NCBI GenBank assembly: GCA_964604305.1
Contig: CAZRYM010000005.1
Location: 7,217 to 71,216, forward strand
DNA length: 64,000 bases
Direction of reading: 5' to 3'
Source of the DNA: an uncultured Thermotogaceae bacterium
Lineage (GTDB): Bacteria > Thermotogota > Thermotogae > MWEM01
The translations under genes were made by a program, and so were the position numbers. How positions within the stretch are numbered: the first letter of the stretch is position 1; every line of letters begins with the position of its first letter. Of this stretch, positions 344 to 23,778 are shown piece after piece. The notes under the pieces are model-generated. The model made no database searches, had not been told where the DNA came from, and saw nothing but the letters and a program-made list of their open reading frames with translations.

Positions 344-1615
344 ATGACAGAAAAACAAAAAAAAGATATCTGGGGTGATTGTACCCAGGAAGAGTGGAAT
401 GATTGGAAATGGCAACTGAAAAACAGAATAATGGATGTAGAAACCTTAAATAAGGTTATAAAACTCTCAGAGGAAGATAAAAGAGCCATAGAACACAGTT
501 TGGAATTTTTAAGAATGGCCATAACACCTTATTATGCATCACTGATAAATCCGGATGATCCGAAGGATCCCATCCGACTTCAGGCTGTCCCTTCTGTTCA
601 TGAGTTAATTGTTGCGCCTGAAGATATGTTGGATCCTTTACATGAAGACGTTGATTCGCCTACGCCAGGGATGACACATAGATATCCCGACAGGGTTTTA
701 CTTTTGGTTACAGATAGATGTTCCATGTACTGCAGGCATTGTACTAGAAGAAGAAAAGCCGGCGATACCGATAAAGCCCTCCCTCTTGGATATGTTGACA
801 AAGCCGTTGAATATCTAAAGGATCATACCGAAGTCAGAGATGTATTAATCTCCGGAGGCGATCCCCTGACACTTCCTACGGAGCATCTTGAAAAAATTAT
901 TCAAAAGATAGCTACCGTTCCCACAGTGGAAATCATAAGAATCGGATCAAGGACACCCGTTGTATTGCCTCAAAGGATTGATGAGGAACTAATCAACATG
1001 CTTAAAAAATATAAAACAATCTGGTTGAATACTCATTTTAACCATCCTGCTGAAATAACGGAAGAGAGTATTAACGCCTTAAACAAACTAGCTGAAGCCG
1101 GAATACCCCTTGGCAACCAGTCTGTACTACTCAGAGGAATCAACGATCATCCCGAAATAATGAAATGCCTCGTTCAAAAATTGGTGAAAAATCGGGTAAG
1201 ACCCTATTACATGTATCAATGTGATCTTTCACAAGGTTTGTCGCATTTTAGAACAACAGTTGCAAAAGGGTTGGAAATCATGGAATATTTAAGAGGACAT
1301 ACATCAGGCTTTGCCGTTCCAACGTATGTAATCGATGCCCCTCATGGAGGAGGAAAGATACCGGTTATGCCACAATATTTGATCTCATATGGAGAAAACA
1401 AAATTATTCTCAGAAATTATGAAGGTGGGTTGTTTGTCTATGAAGAACCAAAAGACTATCATGCATCCGCAGATCCAGATGGCTGGCTTGATGAAAACCG
1501 CAAAAGTAAAGAGGGATTGGCAAGCATGCTATCAGGTAAAAACAAAAAACTGGTACCGGGCGAAACAGAACGTTTGCATAGGGCCGGAGAATGGAAACGA
1601 ACACATTCTCAATAG
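344..1615 (+). CDS. kamA: Lysine 2,3-aminomutase family radical SAM enzyme (KamA/AblA-like)
   Basis: 423 aa with a CxxxCxxC cluster motif (CSMYCRHCTRRR). The LVTDRC...GGDPL core is typical of KamA. RBS AGAAGGGGA lies upstream of ATG 344. Confidence 0.85.
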   Translation: MTEKQKKDIWGDCTQEEWNDWKWQLKNRIMDVETLNKVIKLSEEDKRAIEHSLEFLRMAITPYYASLINPDDPKDPIRLQAVPSVHELIVAPEDMLDPLHEDVDSPTPGMTHRYPDRVLLLVTDRCSMYCRHCTRRRKAGDTDKALPLGYVDKAVEYLKDHTEVRDVLISGGDPLTLPTEHLEKIIQKIATVPTVEIIRIGSRTPVVLPQRIDEELINMLKKYKTIWLNTHFNHPAEITEESINALNKLAEAGIPLGNQSVLLRGINDHPEIMKCLVQKLVKNRVRPYYMYQCDLSQGLSHFRTTVAKGLEIMEYLRGHTSGFAVPTYVIDAPHGGGKIPVMPQYLISYGENKIILRNYEGGLFVYEEPKDYHASADPDGWLDENRKSKEGLASMLSGKNKKLVPGETERLHRAGEWKRTHSQ

Positions 1616-2622
1616 AAGAACTGTTTGATTTCCTGGCAGCAAAGCAAAGAGTGATTTCAATTATTGGCATGGAAAAGAACATCGGTAAGACAACTCTTTT
1701 AAACTTTTTGCTTAAAGGAATGTATGAACGTTCATTGCCTACCTTGGTTATGACTGTTGGCATGGACGGCGAGGCAATTGACAGTGTTGAGAATACTCCG
1801 AAACCTGAGATTATTGTGTACAAGGGCGGGTGTTTTTTAACCATTACTGAATTAATTACTACGCCTTCTTCTGTCGAAGTATTGGAGACATTTGACGTAA
1901 AAGTCTCTGGGTCCAAGGTAATTTTAGCACGAGCGTTAGCAGATACAAAGATTCAACTGGTCAACCCGGCCAACCAAATGATGCTTTCGAAGTTGATTGA
2001 TCAAGGTGTGCGTCATTGCGGAAAGTGTACCGTTCTTATTGATGGAGCTCTGGACAGATTCTCACACGGTTCAACATCCTTAATCGACGGGGTTTTTGTT
2101 TGTGCTGGGGTTCAAACAGCTGGGGATTTACCTCTAATAATCAAAAAAACAAAGTTGTTGATTGGCTATCTTGAGTGCACTGAAAGTGAAGATTATATTC
2201 GAAGACTCATTCGTAATAATGAGATTGAAAAGGGAAGTGCGATAATTAGAGATCGTAAGGCAGTTGCGTGTATAACAGGTACTTTGCTGGATACAACGGA
2301 ACTTGATGAAAAGATCAAGAATAATGATATAATCTATACAACCGGTGTGATAACCGATAAGATAATGAAACGATTTATTGATAGAGAATTAAATGTGACA
2401 ATCGTGTTGATTGATGGCACAAGATGTCATATTAGTCAAAGATATAGCCTTATAATCAACAGAAAGAGAATCGCAATACGTGTCTTGAACAGGATACCAG
2501 TTTATGGTTTGGCAGTTAACAGTGTAGGAATAAGGCGTTCCATGAACCCGTCAAAAGTATTGAAGGATTTTAGAGAAGCGTTTAAAGATTTAAGGGTTTT
2601 TGATACAAGGTATTTGATGTAA
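1591..2622 (+). CDS. Hypothetical protein, partner of kamA; non-canonical G-x5-GKT phosphate-loop-like motif
   Basis: 343-aa ORF overlapping the kamA 3' end by 25 bp, so probably translationally coupled. It carries the motif IIGMEKNIGKTTLLNFL. I recognise no well-characterised family. Confidence 0.5.
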   Translation: METNTFSIEELFDFLAAKQRVISIIGMEKNIGKTTLLNFLLKGMYERSLPTLVMTVGMDGEAIDSVENTPKPEIIVYKGGCFLTITELITTPSSVEVLETFDVKVSGSKVILARALADTKIQLVNPANQMMLSKLIDQGVRHCGKCTVLIDGALDRFSHGSTSLIDGVFVCAGVQTAGDLPLIIKKTKLLIGYLECTESEDYIRRLIRNNEIEKGSAIIRDRKAVACITGTLLDTTELDEKIKNNDIIYTTGVITDKIMKRFIDRELNVTIVLIDGTRCHISQRYSLIINRKRIAIRVLNRIPVYGLAVNSVGIRRSMNPSKVLKDFREAFKDLRVFDTRYLM

Positions 2623-2699: not shown

Positions 2700-3245
2700 A
2701 TGGATTACAAATTAGTGACTAGAGGATTTTCAGCAACAGATGCAGTAGAGGATTATGTGGAAAAGAAAGTTTCAAAACTTGAAAAGGTCATGCCGGAAGG
2801 AGATCATGTTCATACCGAAGTTAAGATTGAACGGGAAAACAAAGATTTCAGAGCCGAGCTAACCGTCCACATAAGAGGGGCTGTGGTCAGAACAGATGAA
2901 ATGACCAATGATATGTACGCTTCTCTGGATCTGGCGGTAGATGCGATGGAAAAGAAACTTGAAAAGTATAAGAACAAAAGAATTGCAAGACACCGGGCTT
3001 CTTCCAAGGTGTTATCGGAAGTGATGAAGAAAGAGAAAGAAGAGGATGAATTTGAGGATGAGTTTGAAGATATCGTCAAGACAAAAAGATTTTTCCTCAG
3101 ACCGATGAATCTTGAGGAGGCAAAACTTCAATTGGAAATGTTGGGCCATAATTTCTTTGTTTTCAAAAACGCTGATACAGACGAGATCAACCTGATCTAC
3201 AGACGTCAAAACAAGACAATGGGTTTAATAGAGTTTGAAGTTTAA
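2700..3245 (+). CDS. hpf: Ribosome hibernation promoting factor, long form (HPF/RaiA)
   Basis: N-terminal YfiA-type fold (MDYKLVTRGFSATDAVEDYVEKKVSKLEK...), an acidic linker (EDEFEDEFED), and the C-terminal dimerisation domain typical of long HPF. RBS AAAGGGGTGA. Confidence 0.9.
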   Translation: MDYKLVTRGFSATDAVEDYVEKKVSKLEKVMPEGDHVHTEVKIERENKDFRAELTVHIRGAVVRTDEMTNDMYASLDLAVDAMEKKLEKYKNKRIARHRASSKVLSEVMKKEKEEDEFEDEFEDIVKTKRFFLRPMNLEEAKLQLEMLGHNFFVFKNADTDEINLIYRRQNKTMGLIEFEV

Positions 3246-13981: not shown

Positions 13982-14785
13982 ATGTCATCAAAAATTTGTG
14001 TTGTTTTACTAAAGGATTTTGCGCTGTTAGGGAGGAAAGGAGAGCTTCTTGAAATTGAAAGTGATTATGCCAGATCATACCTCCTTCCGAAGGGAATTGT
14101 AAAACAAATAACCGATAAAAATACCGTGATCAGGTTAAAAGAGAAAATAAAAGATCAAAAGAAAGAGAAACAGACTTCTTTGTCTGAGACATCGAAGGCT
14201 TTATTATATAAATATAACGATCCTTCTGCTGGCTCAGAAAGGCAATCCGTATTGGGGAAATTGCCCCCGATGAAATTCAGGGTACATTTCAAGAATTCTC
14301 ATACAGAGAAGATGAGTTGGGAATGGTATCCCGCTTACAAATTGAACAGGCTCCCGGCAGGTTACAGATTTGTTATTCTCACACACAAAGGGAGGCAATA
14401 CCTTGGAACATTTCATTATCTTCAACAATTGTTAATCAGAAGGGTGCACTCTCCCTTGATTATCGACGGATCGAATTTGGGCTGGGTAAAAGGGAAACCG
14501 GCGATGGATCCTATATTTGACCTTTATGAGTACATTGCAGATAAATCTGAAAAGTTTTTCTTTCCTTTCATCTGGGCATTTGACAAATCTTTTAAAAGGA
14601 AATTGCCAAAAACAGAAAGAAGGGAATTAACTGAATTTTGTGCATGGTCAGGGACAAAAGTGGTAGATTACGCAGATGAAGAGATTTTTAAATTAGCAAA
14701 ACGATATCACACAAAATATATTTTCTCTCAAGATCATTTTAAACAGTACCATACAGAGTATTATACAAGGATCACTTACAGATAA
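13982..14785 (+). CDS. Fusion protein: ribosomal protein L9 N-terminal domain + Regnase/Zc3h12a-like NYN ribonuclease domain
   Basis: aa 1-45 (MSSKICVVLLKDFALLGRKGELLEIESDYARSYLLPKGIV) matches the L9 N-domain (VILLKDVKGLGKKGE..EV.DGYARNFL.PKG). A K/E-rich helix follows. The C-terminal half has IIDGSNLGW and DYADEEIFKLAKRYHTKYIFSQDHF, which resemble Regnase-1 VIDGSNVAM and DDRFIVKLA...VSNDTYRDL. Confidence 0.6.
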   Translation: MSSKICVVLLKDFALLGRKGELLEIESDYARSYLLPKGIVKQITDKNTVIRLKEKIKDQKKEKQTSLSETSKALLYKYNDPSAGSERQSVLGKLPPMKFRVHFKNSHTEKMSWEWYPAYKLNRLPAGYRFVILTHKGRQYLGTFHYLQQLLIRRVHSPLIIDGSNLGWVKGKPAMDPIFDLYEYIADKSEKFFFPFIWAFDKSFKRKLPKTERRELTEFCAWSGTKVVDYADEEIFKLAKRYHTKYIFSQDHFKQYHTEYYTRITYR

Positions 14786-22353: not shown

Positions 22354-23778
22354 TCATTCTTGATTGGGGAACTGAAAATCTTTGGAAGCGTTTGCAATTT
22401 GGTATTGTTCAATACTGTTACGTATGCTTTCAAATTTAATTTCTACAGTTTTTCCAAGGATTTTTTCTATGGCATGTTTTTTTTCTTTCAGAATCTTGAT
22501 GTCTTCAATTTTTCTTTGTGCAAAAGGTGTACCCGGCTTTGGAATCAATGGGTTGAAGCTGATTTTTATATCTGTAACTCCAAATGAGTGAGCAAGGTCA
22601 CTGATTTTTCCAATCGCTGTAAAATCGGATTCCTCCTCTTCTCTCAAGCCGTAGATAAAGTACATCTTAAGCTTTTTTAAGCCTTTTTTTGCGATCATTC
22701 TAAGACTTCTTTCAATATCCTCATTGGATATTTGTTTCTTCATCACATCTCTTATCTTTTGACTGCCACCCTCCGGGGCGATAGTGATTTCCCTTTGTCC
22801 ACTTCTTATGATTCCTTCAATCAACTTTTCTGATAGAGAATCCAGCCTTAATGATGAAACTGAGAATTTCATATTCCTCTCTTCAAGAAGGTCGAGAATA
22901 TTTTCTTTAAATGGATGATCTGTAAATGTTGCTGAGATTAGACCGCAATCAGTAAATCCTTTTTCTTTTATTTCATCCAGAACAGTTCTTATAACATCTA
23001 TTTTAACAAATCTGGCCGGACTTCGAGTATGTCCTGCGACACAGAATGCGCAAGATCTAATACATCCTCTGCCAATTTCCAAGAGGACTTTATCAGGAAA
23101 AACTGATTTTCTACTTGTAAAAATAGAAACAGCAGGTTTATCTATCATCTCAAATGATTTGGAAGTTGCTTTTGAGTCCACATTAAGAGGGGGGATTGAA
23201 AGATTTTCAATTATTCTAAGTTCTTCAAGTATAGTTGTCCGATCTTTTTTTCCTTTAAAACCTTCCCGAAGATTTAGCATGAGAAATTGTAGTTTACCTT
23301 CCGCATCCCCATGAAAAATTATGTCTGTATATCTCCAAAGGGCATTAGGGTTAAAATATGTAACGGCACCCCCCAGTAGAATAAACGGATGATGGTTTGT
23401 TCTGTTTTGACTTTGCAGTGGAATCCCCTTTTTCTTTAAGAGGGTAATAACATTTTTGAAATCCATTTCAAAAGAAACGGAAAAGGCCCAAATGTGAAAT
23501 TCATCCAAAGGCCTAAAAGTATCTAGAGAATAAAAACGGGAAAAACCTTTATCAAAAAAAAATCTTTCACATTGAATTCCATCAAGGGAGTTTAATAGTT
23601 CAAATACTTTGTGAAACCCAAGATTTGAAATAGCTGTCTCGTAAGATGAAGGGAAGATCAGAGCCACTTTTAAATCCTTTTCCATAATATGAAGAGATCT
23701 GAATGTCTTTTCAGATCTCTTTTTGTTTTCAATAATCTTAAATTCTTTCAGGTCTTCGGACCTTCTTGGTTTTCTCAA
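22354..23778 (-). CDS. B12-binding-domain radical SAM protein (TIGR03960-like, function unknown)
   Basis: The N-terminus (KVALIFPSSYETAISNLG) resembles a B12-binding-like fold. Radical SAM cluster motif GRGCIRSCAFCVAG. The start is either TTG 23778 (coupled) or ATG 23685. Confidence 0.8.
   Translation of the reverse strand: MRKPRRSEDLKEFKIIENKKRSEKTFRSLHIMEKDLKVALIFPSSYETAISNLGFHKVFELLNSLDGIQCERFFFDKGFSRFYSLDTFRPLDEFHIWAFSVSFEMDFKNVITLLKKKGIPLQSQNRTNHHPFILLGGAVTYFNPNALWRYTDIIFHGDAEGKLQFLMLNLREGFKGKKDRTTILEELRIIENLSIPPLNVDSKATSKSFEMIDKPAVSIFTSRKSVFPDKVLLEIGRGCIRSCAFCVAGHTRSPARFVKIDVIRTVLDEIKEKGFTDCGLISATFTDHPFKENILDLLEERNMKFSVSSLRLDSLSEKLIEGIIRSGQREITIAPEGGSQKIRDVMKKQISNEDIERSLRMIAKKGLKKLKMYFIYGLREEEESDFTAIGKISDLAHSFGVTDIKISFNPLIPKPGTPFAQRKIEDIKILKEKKHAIEKILGKTVEIKFESIRNSIEQYQIANASKDFQFPNQE

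Follow-up and report, generated by a model that had tools for sequence, protein, structure and literature searches.

A lysine 2,3-aminomutase gene overlaps a KamB-like gene

The window analysed here is a 64-kb stretch (64,000 nucleotides of contig CAZRYM010000005.1) from an uncultured Thermotogaceae bacterium, and near its start it carries two overlapping genes on the forward strand: kamA (344..1615, +), predicted to encode a lysine 2,3-aminomutase of 423 amino acids (aa), and a KamB-like gene (1591..2622, +), whose 343-aa product, referred to below as the partner, is the main subject of this analysis. Both open reading frames (ORFs) read as described in the original prediction, a note made from the DNA letters alone. 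They share 25 nucleotides (nt; 1591..1615, +), the partner gene beginning with an ATG at 1591 that is directly preceded by GGAG, an arrangement implying that the two genes are probably coupled in translation. The same -25-nt junction was found in all window-type Thermotogota loci, including L014/L015 and L104 (partner ~29% identical), and a scan for promoters and terminators around the pair returned nothing exceeding shuffled expectation.

The upstream gene product passes TIGR03820, the lysine 2,3-aminomutase equivalog model, with 599.7 bits against a cutoff of 525.4, and aligns over 407 residues (553 bits) to the solved C. subterminale enzyme (2A5H). It keeps the CxxxCxxC motif expected of this radical S-adenosylmethionine (SAM) and pyridoxal 5'-phosphate (PLP) enzyme, together with Arg134, the ligands of the lysine epsilon-amino group (Asp293 and Asp330) and the PLP lysine (Lys337), and is, judged by its sequence, a genuine lysine 2,3-aminomutase. 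Identification as a glutamate or arginine 2,3-aminomutase or as EpmB was rejected, since the scores on the corresponding models lie below their cutoffs (for EpmB, 246 bits against 369.3) and Asp293 and Asp330 are kept. TIGR03820 carries the name AblA; this name was discarded as evidence for osmolyte synthesis, because KamAs of fermentation clusters pass the model equally (582–641 bits).

The structural zinc site of the Clostridium enzyme (Cys268, Cys375, Cys377, Cys380) is absent from the window KamA, where H/A/P/W occupy these positions. The full four-Cys site is likewise gone from all Thermotogota KamAs examined, from complete clusters and from loci with only the pair alike (the survey took in the window KamA, L060, L089, L090 and L100-L102); Pseudothermotoga, Athalassotoga and Mesoaciditoga keep Cys268 and Cys375 only. 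Because the site is also missing from complete clusters, its absence does not disqualify the window protein as KamA, and loss of the site was rejected as a correlate of the pair-only organisation. Outside Thermotogota the site is missing in one Bacteroidales clade and kept by most other KamAs.

In having a KamA-family gene beside a single partner gene, the locus resembles the AblA/AblB and EpmB/EpmA systems; it differs from them in that the partner is neither a GNAT acetyltransferase nor a paralogue of lysyl-tRNA synthetase (LysRS). Searches of Pfam and NCBIfam detected no GNAT, tRNA-synthetase or LysRS-paralogue domain in it, in agreement with the statement in the original prediction that the usual acetyltransferase or EpmA partner is missing. 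The sole class II aminoacyl-tRNA synthetase in the window, a full-length enzyme of 504 aa, lies 38 kb from the pair.

Homology places the partner in the KamB family

Pfam returned no family for the partner, even at E<=10, and a sequence search of the PDB yielded no significant relative. In NCBIfam, the model NF052386 ("lysine 5,6-aminomutase reactivase subunit KamB") matched end to end (E=5e-59), partner residues 22–338 covering model positions 1–325 of 326, and the earlier description of this protein as uncharacterised had to be given up. With 199.8 bits the partner narrowly misses the cutoff of 210, and is thus clearly homologous yet no equivalog by NCBI's rule. Members of the window clade score 200–211 bits (for example 210.6 for L013 and 204.1 for L015) and those of a Pseudothermotoga group 105–156 bits, against 303–401 bits for canonical and detached KamBs, whatever their context.

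The closest homologues form a clade from Thermotogota metagenome-assembled genomes (MAGs) at 41–99% identity; the next, at 24–30%, are Fusobacterium proteins named KamB in UniRef, and canonical KamBs are 28–30% identical to the partner. A profile search of 1.8 billion representatives recovered 2,212 clusters, with a single architecture of about 300–400 aa in all 150 matches listed, and scanning metagenomes with the one sequence contributed just four further loci, all near-identical. All 25 invariant columns of a family alignment (A1), comprising GxxKNxGKT, GxDGE..D, KP, DGALxR, G173, T187, G252 and DGT, are present in the partner, and 29 positions are at least 90% conserved both in the Thermotogota clade and in the remaining family. 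These comparisons identify the partner, by homology, as a strongly diverged variant of the KamB family and not as a new kind of protein. That its ORF is a real gene is supported by the homologues at 41–99% identity, by a ratio of nonsynonymous to synonymous substitution rates (dN/dS) of 0.17–0.18 in unsaturated pairs and by a confident structure model. Among database names for homologues, a JGI entry (P0004) reads 'aerobic-type carbon monoxide dehydrogenase small subunit (CoxS/CutS family)', which neither sequence nor fold supports and which is probably an annotation error; the NCBI name for another (P0007) is 'hypothetical protein'.

Predicted structure and conserved motifs of the partner

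An AlphaFold model of the partner, computed with the family alignment as input, was confident (predicted local distance difference test score, pLDDT, 84.6; predicted template modelling score, pTM, 0.84). In this model, the N-terminal half (about residues 18–195; 1642..2175, +) adopts the parallel-sheet alpha/beta fold of a SIMIBI-class phosphate-binding-loop (P-loop) NTPase. The closest folds to the predicted N-terminal half were dethiobiotin synthetase (3of5, 12.0; 1a82, 11.5), SRP54/Ffh (11.4), Get3 (11.3) and DUF1611/DgcN (11.0 and 10.5), with lower values for MinD/ParA/NifH (about 10) and UreG (9.7); Foldseek gave weak matches, again to the SIMIBI class. Sequence identity to BioD and the other SIMIBI NTPases (MinD/ParA/NifH/Get3, SRP54/FtsY, UreG, MeaB) is only 9–20%, and Pfam and NCBIfam place the partner in none of the BioD, MinD/ParA/NifH/Get3, SRP54/FtsY or UreG/MeaB families.

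The P-loop lies within IIGMEKNIGKTT at residues 24–35 and reads G26-M-E-K29-N30-I-G32-K33-T34 (Gx5GKT; 1666..1692, +). The original prediction had reported this spacing correctly and had called the motif a phosphate-binding-loop look-alike; the loop proved to be no oddity, since G-[LM]-x-K-N-x-G-K-T occurs in all bacterial KamB members of every context class and is a near-universal hallmark of the family. Residues G26, K29, N30, K33 and T34 are invariant in an alignment of 12 diverse homologues (A3); N30 is replaced by Gly in the more diverged ORF of L103 (GTKKGAGKTT), and Ser replaces G32 in three Promethearchaeota homologues. The Asgard loop, GLAKNVSKT, thus has Ser for the Gly before Lys in proteins that still score 401 bits on the KamB model.

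Downstream of the P-loop, a charged segment, G57-x-D59-G60-E61-x-x-D64 ... K71-P72 (1759..1806, +), is invariant in A1 and A3 and more than 90% conserved in the Thermotogota clade and in the rest of the family; it is a putative switch-I-like element or substrate/Mg site. A Walker-B-like strand end, D151-G-A-L-D-R156 (VLIDGALDR; 2041..2058, +), has D151, G152, A153 and R156 invariant and reads DGALDR, DGAFGR, DGALER or DGAFNR in the most diverged homologues. The partner thereby combines Walker A residues G32-K33-T34 with a Walker-B aspartate, D151, placed after the hydrophobic V-L-I, as in a SIMIBI NTPase. Because the guanine-specificity motif NKxD is not conserved in A1 or A3, the alignments suggest ATP as the likely nucleotide.

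The C-terminal alpha/beta domain (about residues 196–343; 2176..2619, +), with G252, D275-G-T277 and N310, has a fold weakly resembling cytidine deaminase and FdhD, with the zinc ligands missing. The zinc motifs of cytidine deaminases (H/C-x-E ... C-x-x-C) are not present in this domain, and zinc deaminase activity was rejected because no Cys is conserved. The conserved-looking Cys and His residues noted in the original prediction did not survive alignment, as the KamB family as a whole has no conserved Cys or His column and the Cys residues of the window protein are common to its closest relatives only. An ATP-driven reductase of the NifH/archerase type was rejected for want of a conserved Cys to hold a cluster, and the partner differs from NifH, with its bridging Fe-S cluster, and from UreG and HypB, with their metal site, in lacking Cys ligands, and it has an extra C-terminal domain.

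The fold comparison bears on one alternative role, already raised in the original prediction as an ATP-dependent ligase or kinase: the dethiobiotin-synthetase-like domain would phosphorylate, ligate or cyclise lysine, beta-lysine or a derivative with ATP, giving beta-lysine, a diamino acid like the substrate of dethiobiotin synthetase, a different fate. The dethiobiotin synthetase loop, GTDTEVGKT, has the same Gx5GKT spacing as the partner, and this enzyme heads the fold matches; SRP54/Ffh and Get3 follow closely in the same comparison, the sequence identities are those of distant relatives, and the only family match of the partner is to KamB. We consider such a small-molecule enzyme distinctly unlikely.

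The overlapping pair persists across Thermotogota

An overlapping kamA and KamB-like pair was present at every locus examined of this Thermotogota KamA clade. Beyond the window clade, the most similar KamAs (64–68% identity) come from Pseudothermotoga, Thermotoga caldifontis, Mesoaciditoga and Athalassotoga, and in these organisms (for T. caldifontis, the caldifontis type) kamA is followed by an overlapping (16–52 nt) ORF of 294–323 aa and then by dnaN. Pfam gave no match for these ORFs; hhalign ties the still more diverged Pseudothermotoga ORF to the KamB-like family with 99.5% probability (E=1.2e-22), and the ORFs of this group keep GxxK[NG]xGKT, GxDGE, KP and DGA[LF]xR. In alignment A3, 17 residues are invariant, all of them in the N-terminal NTPase domain.

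The pair occurs in three neighbourhoods, coaD-[AB]-hpf, PEGA-[AB]-dnaN and Mrr-[AB]-dnaN, of which the kamA/KamB-like pair is the sole constant, indicating that it persists as a unit. KamA identity is 75–83% within the window clade and 58–60% between window-clade KamAs and those of fermentation clusters, including Kosmotoga and Thermosipho, while the latter are 64–85% identical among themselves; KamA and the partner have co-diverged from the canonical cluster versions. Together, kamA and the KamB-like gene form an old, translationally coupled module that is conserved over a large branch of Thermotogota and is, at least locally, detached from kamC, kamD and kamE. This two-gene arrangement of kamA with a diverged KamB variant was previously unreported.

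KamB contexts and the distribution of lysine 5,6-aminomutase

In the lysine-fermentation cluster of Fusobacterium, the gene order is kce-kdd-kamA-kamB-kamC(MutS_V)-kamD-kamE, the MutS-like KamC being named "reactivase ATPase" in its NCBIfam model (NF052383). The KamB of such clusters resembles the partner in full-length homology, in its length of ~340 aa, in the motifs GxxKNxGKT, GxDGE, KP, DGALxR and DGT, and in being encoded directly downstream of kamA. The partner differs in its low identity and sub-cutoff score given above, in its rapid evolution and co-diverged KamA, in its lack of neighbouring kamC, kamD and kamE, and in its overlap, which is with kamA, whereas canonical kamB overlaps kamC. 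In the 64-kb window, tblastn found no match to kce, kdd, kamC, kamD or kamE, and none of the five was found in the flanks of more than 15 related loci (up to 10 kb on each side, shorter at contig ends).

With one genome scanned for each GTDB species, at least 562 relatives were recovered, and the best 80 loci were scored for seven cluster genes; counts cover the 46 with adequate flanks. Half of these (23/46) have kamA-kamB-kamC-kamD/E, nine have kamA-kamB only, seven kamB-kamC only and three kamB alone; three more, two from Promethearchaeota and one from a Sporomusaceae, have kamA, kamB and kamD/E without kamC, and one has kamA-kamB-kamC. The analysis also carries a warning about the new NF052386 name, which is applied to, or narrowly missed by, proteins in at least four contexts without a nearby 5,6-aminomutase. 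In a neighbour-joining tree of KamB, a deep branch of its own holds the pair-only proteins of Thermotogota, Bacteroidales contain two more pair-only clades of independent origin, and the kamB-kamC-only loci make up one clade. The Bacteroidales pairs without nearby kamC/D/E (L022, L023, L024, L028, L034, L045 and L056) encode an otherwise canonical KamB (338–353 bits), and one of them, L023, is flanked by nrdD/nrdG and genes for a PLD-like protein, an enoyl-CoA hydratase and hflX, with no lysine-fermentation genes; the two clades lend independent support to a KamA-dedicated pairing.

Several cluster variants were seen in passing. Eleven Bacteroidales loci (L027, L044, L048, L050, L053, L061, L068, L073, L078, L081 and L082) have a longer KamC (610-aa ORF), and in Asgard-archaeal lysine clusters kamD-kamE follows directly after kamB, with no kamC (L063, L079 and L084 from Promethearchaeota or an uncultured archaeon; L080 from the Sporomusaceae has the same order). 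Kosmotoga-type clusters (L089-L095, from Kosmotoga and related MAG contigs) have a 4HBT thioesterase gene upstream of kce and a gene for a MaoC-like dehydratase between kamA and kamB, so that even a complete cluster need not have kamA and kamB side by side.

The distribution of the 5,6-aminomutase itself was surveyed with the Thermosipho KamD as query, which gave more than 8000 matches, the best 120 of which (72–100% identity) were listed. The named matches among these 120 belong to Thermosipho, Marinitoga, Fervidobacterium, Kosmotoga, Oceanotoga, Petrotoga and Bacteroidales/Bacteroidota, including one Chitinophagaceae; none is from a genus with only the pair. These results bear on an explanation in which the partner is an ordinary KamB of a split pathway, the pair being the detached front half of a lysine-fermentation cluster, with kamC, kamD, kamE, kdd and kce at other chromosomal positions and the partner acting in trans. 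Were those genes found there, the locus would amount to an ordinary split lysine-fermentation pathway. KamB is the partner's sole family match, kamA-kamB is the normal order in complete clusters, lysine-fermentation genes are common in Thermotogota according to the KamD search and to Vital et al. 2014, who reported the lysine pathway in some Thermotogae (PMC3994512), and the Bacteroidales kamB-kamC pairs detached from aminomutase genes demonstrate that the components can disperse. However, all Thermotogota KamD contexts examined are complete clusters with their own canonical kamA and kamB, and none is the kamC-D-E locus without kamA and kamB that a split pathway would leave behind. Pseudothermotoga, Mesoaciditoga, Athalassotoga and the pair-carrying MAG lineages do not appear among the named KamD matches listed, partner-type proteins reach just 105–211 bits on the KamB model, KamA has diverged along with the partner, and kamC, the gene overlapped by kamB in canonical clusters, is missing locally, with the tight coupling to kamA in its place. 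Weighing these points, we regard a split pathway as unlikely; the survey is suggestive, but not conclusive, that genomes carrying the pair have no B12-dependent aminomutase.

A candidate accessory factor for the aminomutase

The reading that we favour, with a probability of roughly 45%, is that the partner now serves KamA alone, as an NTP-dependent accessory factor. It would bind KamA and use nucleotide hydrolysis to load or exchange the cofactor of the aminomutase; alternatively, hydrolysis would release the dead-end products of abortive turnover (5'-deoxyadenosine plus methionine, an oxidised cluster or a PLP adduct) and so restore KamA activity. Contact with KamA, the choice of nucleotide and the chemistry of repair are proposed here by analogy with the reactivases of B12 enzymes and with SIMIBI cofactor chaperones (MeaB, UreG, HypB, CooC, ApbC). 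That the partner has kept a function is indicated by its invariant NTPase core, by intact ORFs over deep divergence and by the pair having stayed together when relocated. The interpretation offered in the original prediction is supported in part.

Lysine 2,3-aminomutase is the textbook user of S-adenosylmethionine as a true, regenerated coenzyme (the "poor man's B12"), and B12 radical enzymes have dedicated ATP-dependent reactivases; to our knowledge, no equivalent reactivase is known for radical-SAM mutases. The partner would share with the adenosylcobalamin-enzyme reactivases (DdrAB, GdrAB, EutA, MeaB) the nucleotide-dependent release or exchange of a damaged cofactor, with the difference that its likely client is a radical-SAM enzyme and not a B12 enzyme. 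DdrA and EutA are ATPases of the actin/Hsp70 fold, not P-loop proteins, whereas MeaB, the chaperone of methylmalonyl-CoA mutase, is a SIMIBI-class NTPase. More tentatively, and with a good deal of doubt, one may suppose that the B12-dependent 5,6-aminomutase is not the only enzyme served by KamB-family NTPases, and that the Thermotogota partner works specifically for the radical-SAM enzyme KamA, as a nucleotide-driven reactivase or cofactor chaperone. In that case an enzyme with SAM as a regenerated coenzyme would for the first time have a described repair factor, one that mirrors the adenosylcobalamin-enzyme reactivases, and the question would arise whether canonical KamB, encoded beside kamA, services KamA too. 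A conserved, coupled pair of KamA and a putative reactivase-subunit homologue, in genomes seemingly without the B12 enzyme, is a concrete candidate for such a system and can be tested in Pseudothermotoga, Athalassotoga and Mesoaciditoga, which are in culture and have complete genomes.

Several observations weigh against a KamA-dedicated accessory factor. Many KamA enzymes, among them those of AblA/AblB systems, the B. subtilis KamA and EpmB, work without KamB, so that KamA needs no such factor in general. The original prediction had asked whether the partner gene always co-occurs with kamA; this holds at every examined locus of the Thermotogota clade and fails, locally, in the Bacteroidales clade that has kamB-kamC with no aminomutase nearby, which shows that KamB is not intrinsically tied to KamA. 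The absence of kamC/D/E refers to the window and the flanks described above, and the KamD genus names to the best 120 of more than 8000 matches. NCBI annotation makes KamB and the MutS-like ATPase KamC the reactivase of the B12-dependent lysine 5,6-aminomutase; the searchable literature contains no publication characterising KamB or KamC, including in this role, and as far as we could verify the reactivase name of KamB rests on annotation rather than experiment. A 2011 paper on the cluster labelled the kamB and kamC genes only 'HP' and 'mutS' (PMC3149608), and according to a 2022 review E2, a component of lysine 5,6-aminomutase, is a reactivating, ATP-dependent sulfhydryl protein known biochemically only (PMC9081730); no biochemical link between KamB and E2 is reported in the searchable literature. 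A literature search for beta-lysine, B12 enzymes or KamA in Thermotogota likewise returned nothing relevant.

The evolutionary rate of the partner also counts against this role. Between the window and its close relatives, KamA is 92–93% identical and neighbouring proteins 86–97%, and the partner, at 61–67%, is by far the fastest-evolving gene of the block, with a dN/dS 6–8 times that of kamA (0.02–0.03). Rapid evolution and decay of the C-terminal domain fit the loss of the former partners KamC and KamDE, and also fit a relic: a KamB-like gene left without a client after kamC/D/E loss and persisting under weak constraint, for example through its translation being coupled to kamA or through a minor regulatory role, with no important biochemistry. 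Consistent with a relic, homologues shorten stepwise from 343 to 294–323 aa, model scores fall in steps, and the C-terminal motifs G252, DGT and N310 are lost in the Pseudothermotoga group. Against it, every locus examined has an intact ORF, in lineages with no more than 51–75% identity between their housekeeping proteins; the dN/dS values indicate that the partner, although fast-evolving, is under purifying selection; the 17 NTPase-domain residues are unchanged in all 12 sequences of A3, the Gly for N30 in the L103 ORF notwithstanding; and at least two genomic relocations have left the pair together. We therefore hold a relic to be improbable, and return to an accessory factor for KamA as the preferred account.

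Genomic neighbourhood of the pair

Upstream, the pair is preceded by the 3' end of coaD (phosphopantetheine adenylyltransferase, PF01467; 15..293, +), and downstream it is followed by hpf, encoding a ribosome hibernation factor identified by Pfam (2700..3245, +), and then by rng, a GH57 glucanotransferase gene and pnp. The order coaD-kamA-kamB-like-hpf is kept in L001-L015 and L104, and the window and its relatives share the longer order cheB-coaD-kamA-kamB-like-hpf-rng-GH57-pnp. Pfam searches of 26 of the roughly 50 larger ORFs in the window identified housekeeping proteins in every case, and Rfam identified tRNA only.

In L001 and L006, two adjacent Lys_export genes (LysO, PF03956; 1..612) lie ~8 kb upstream of kamA, in a region outside the window. 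They share a conserved syntenic block with the kamA pair, with nadE, tauE, a four-subunit 2-oxoacid:ferredoxin oxidoreductase, cheB and coaD lying in between, and a link of these genes to lysine or beta-lysine handling is possible. Elsewhere in the window, a 267-aa ORF (13982..14785, +) matches Pfam at residues 7–47 only, with the N-terminal domain of ribosomal protein L9, and much exceeds the typical length of L9. A second radical-SAM protein, of 474 aa with Radical_SAM_N2 and Radical_SAM domains, is encoded on the opposite strand (22354..23778, -) and is unrelated to KamA.

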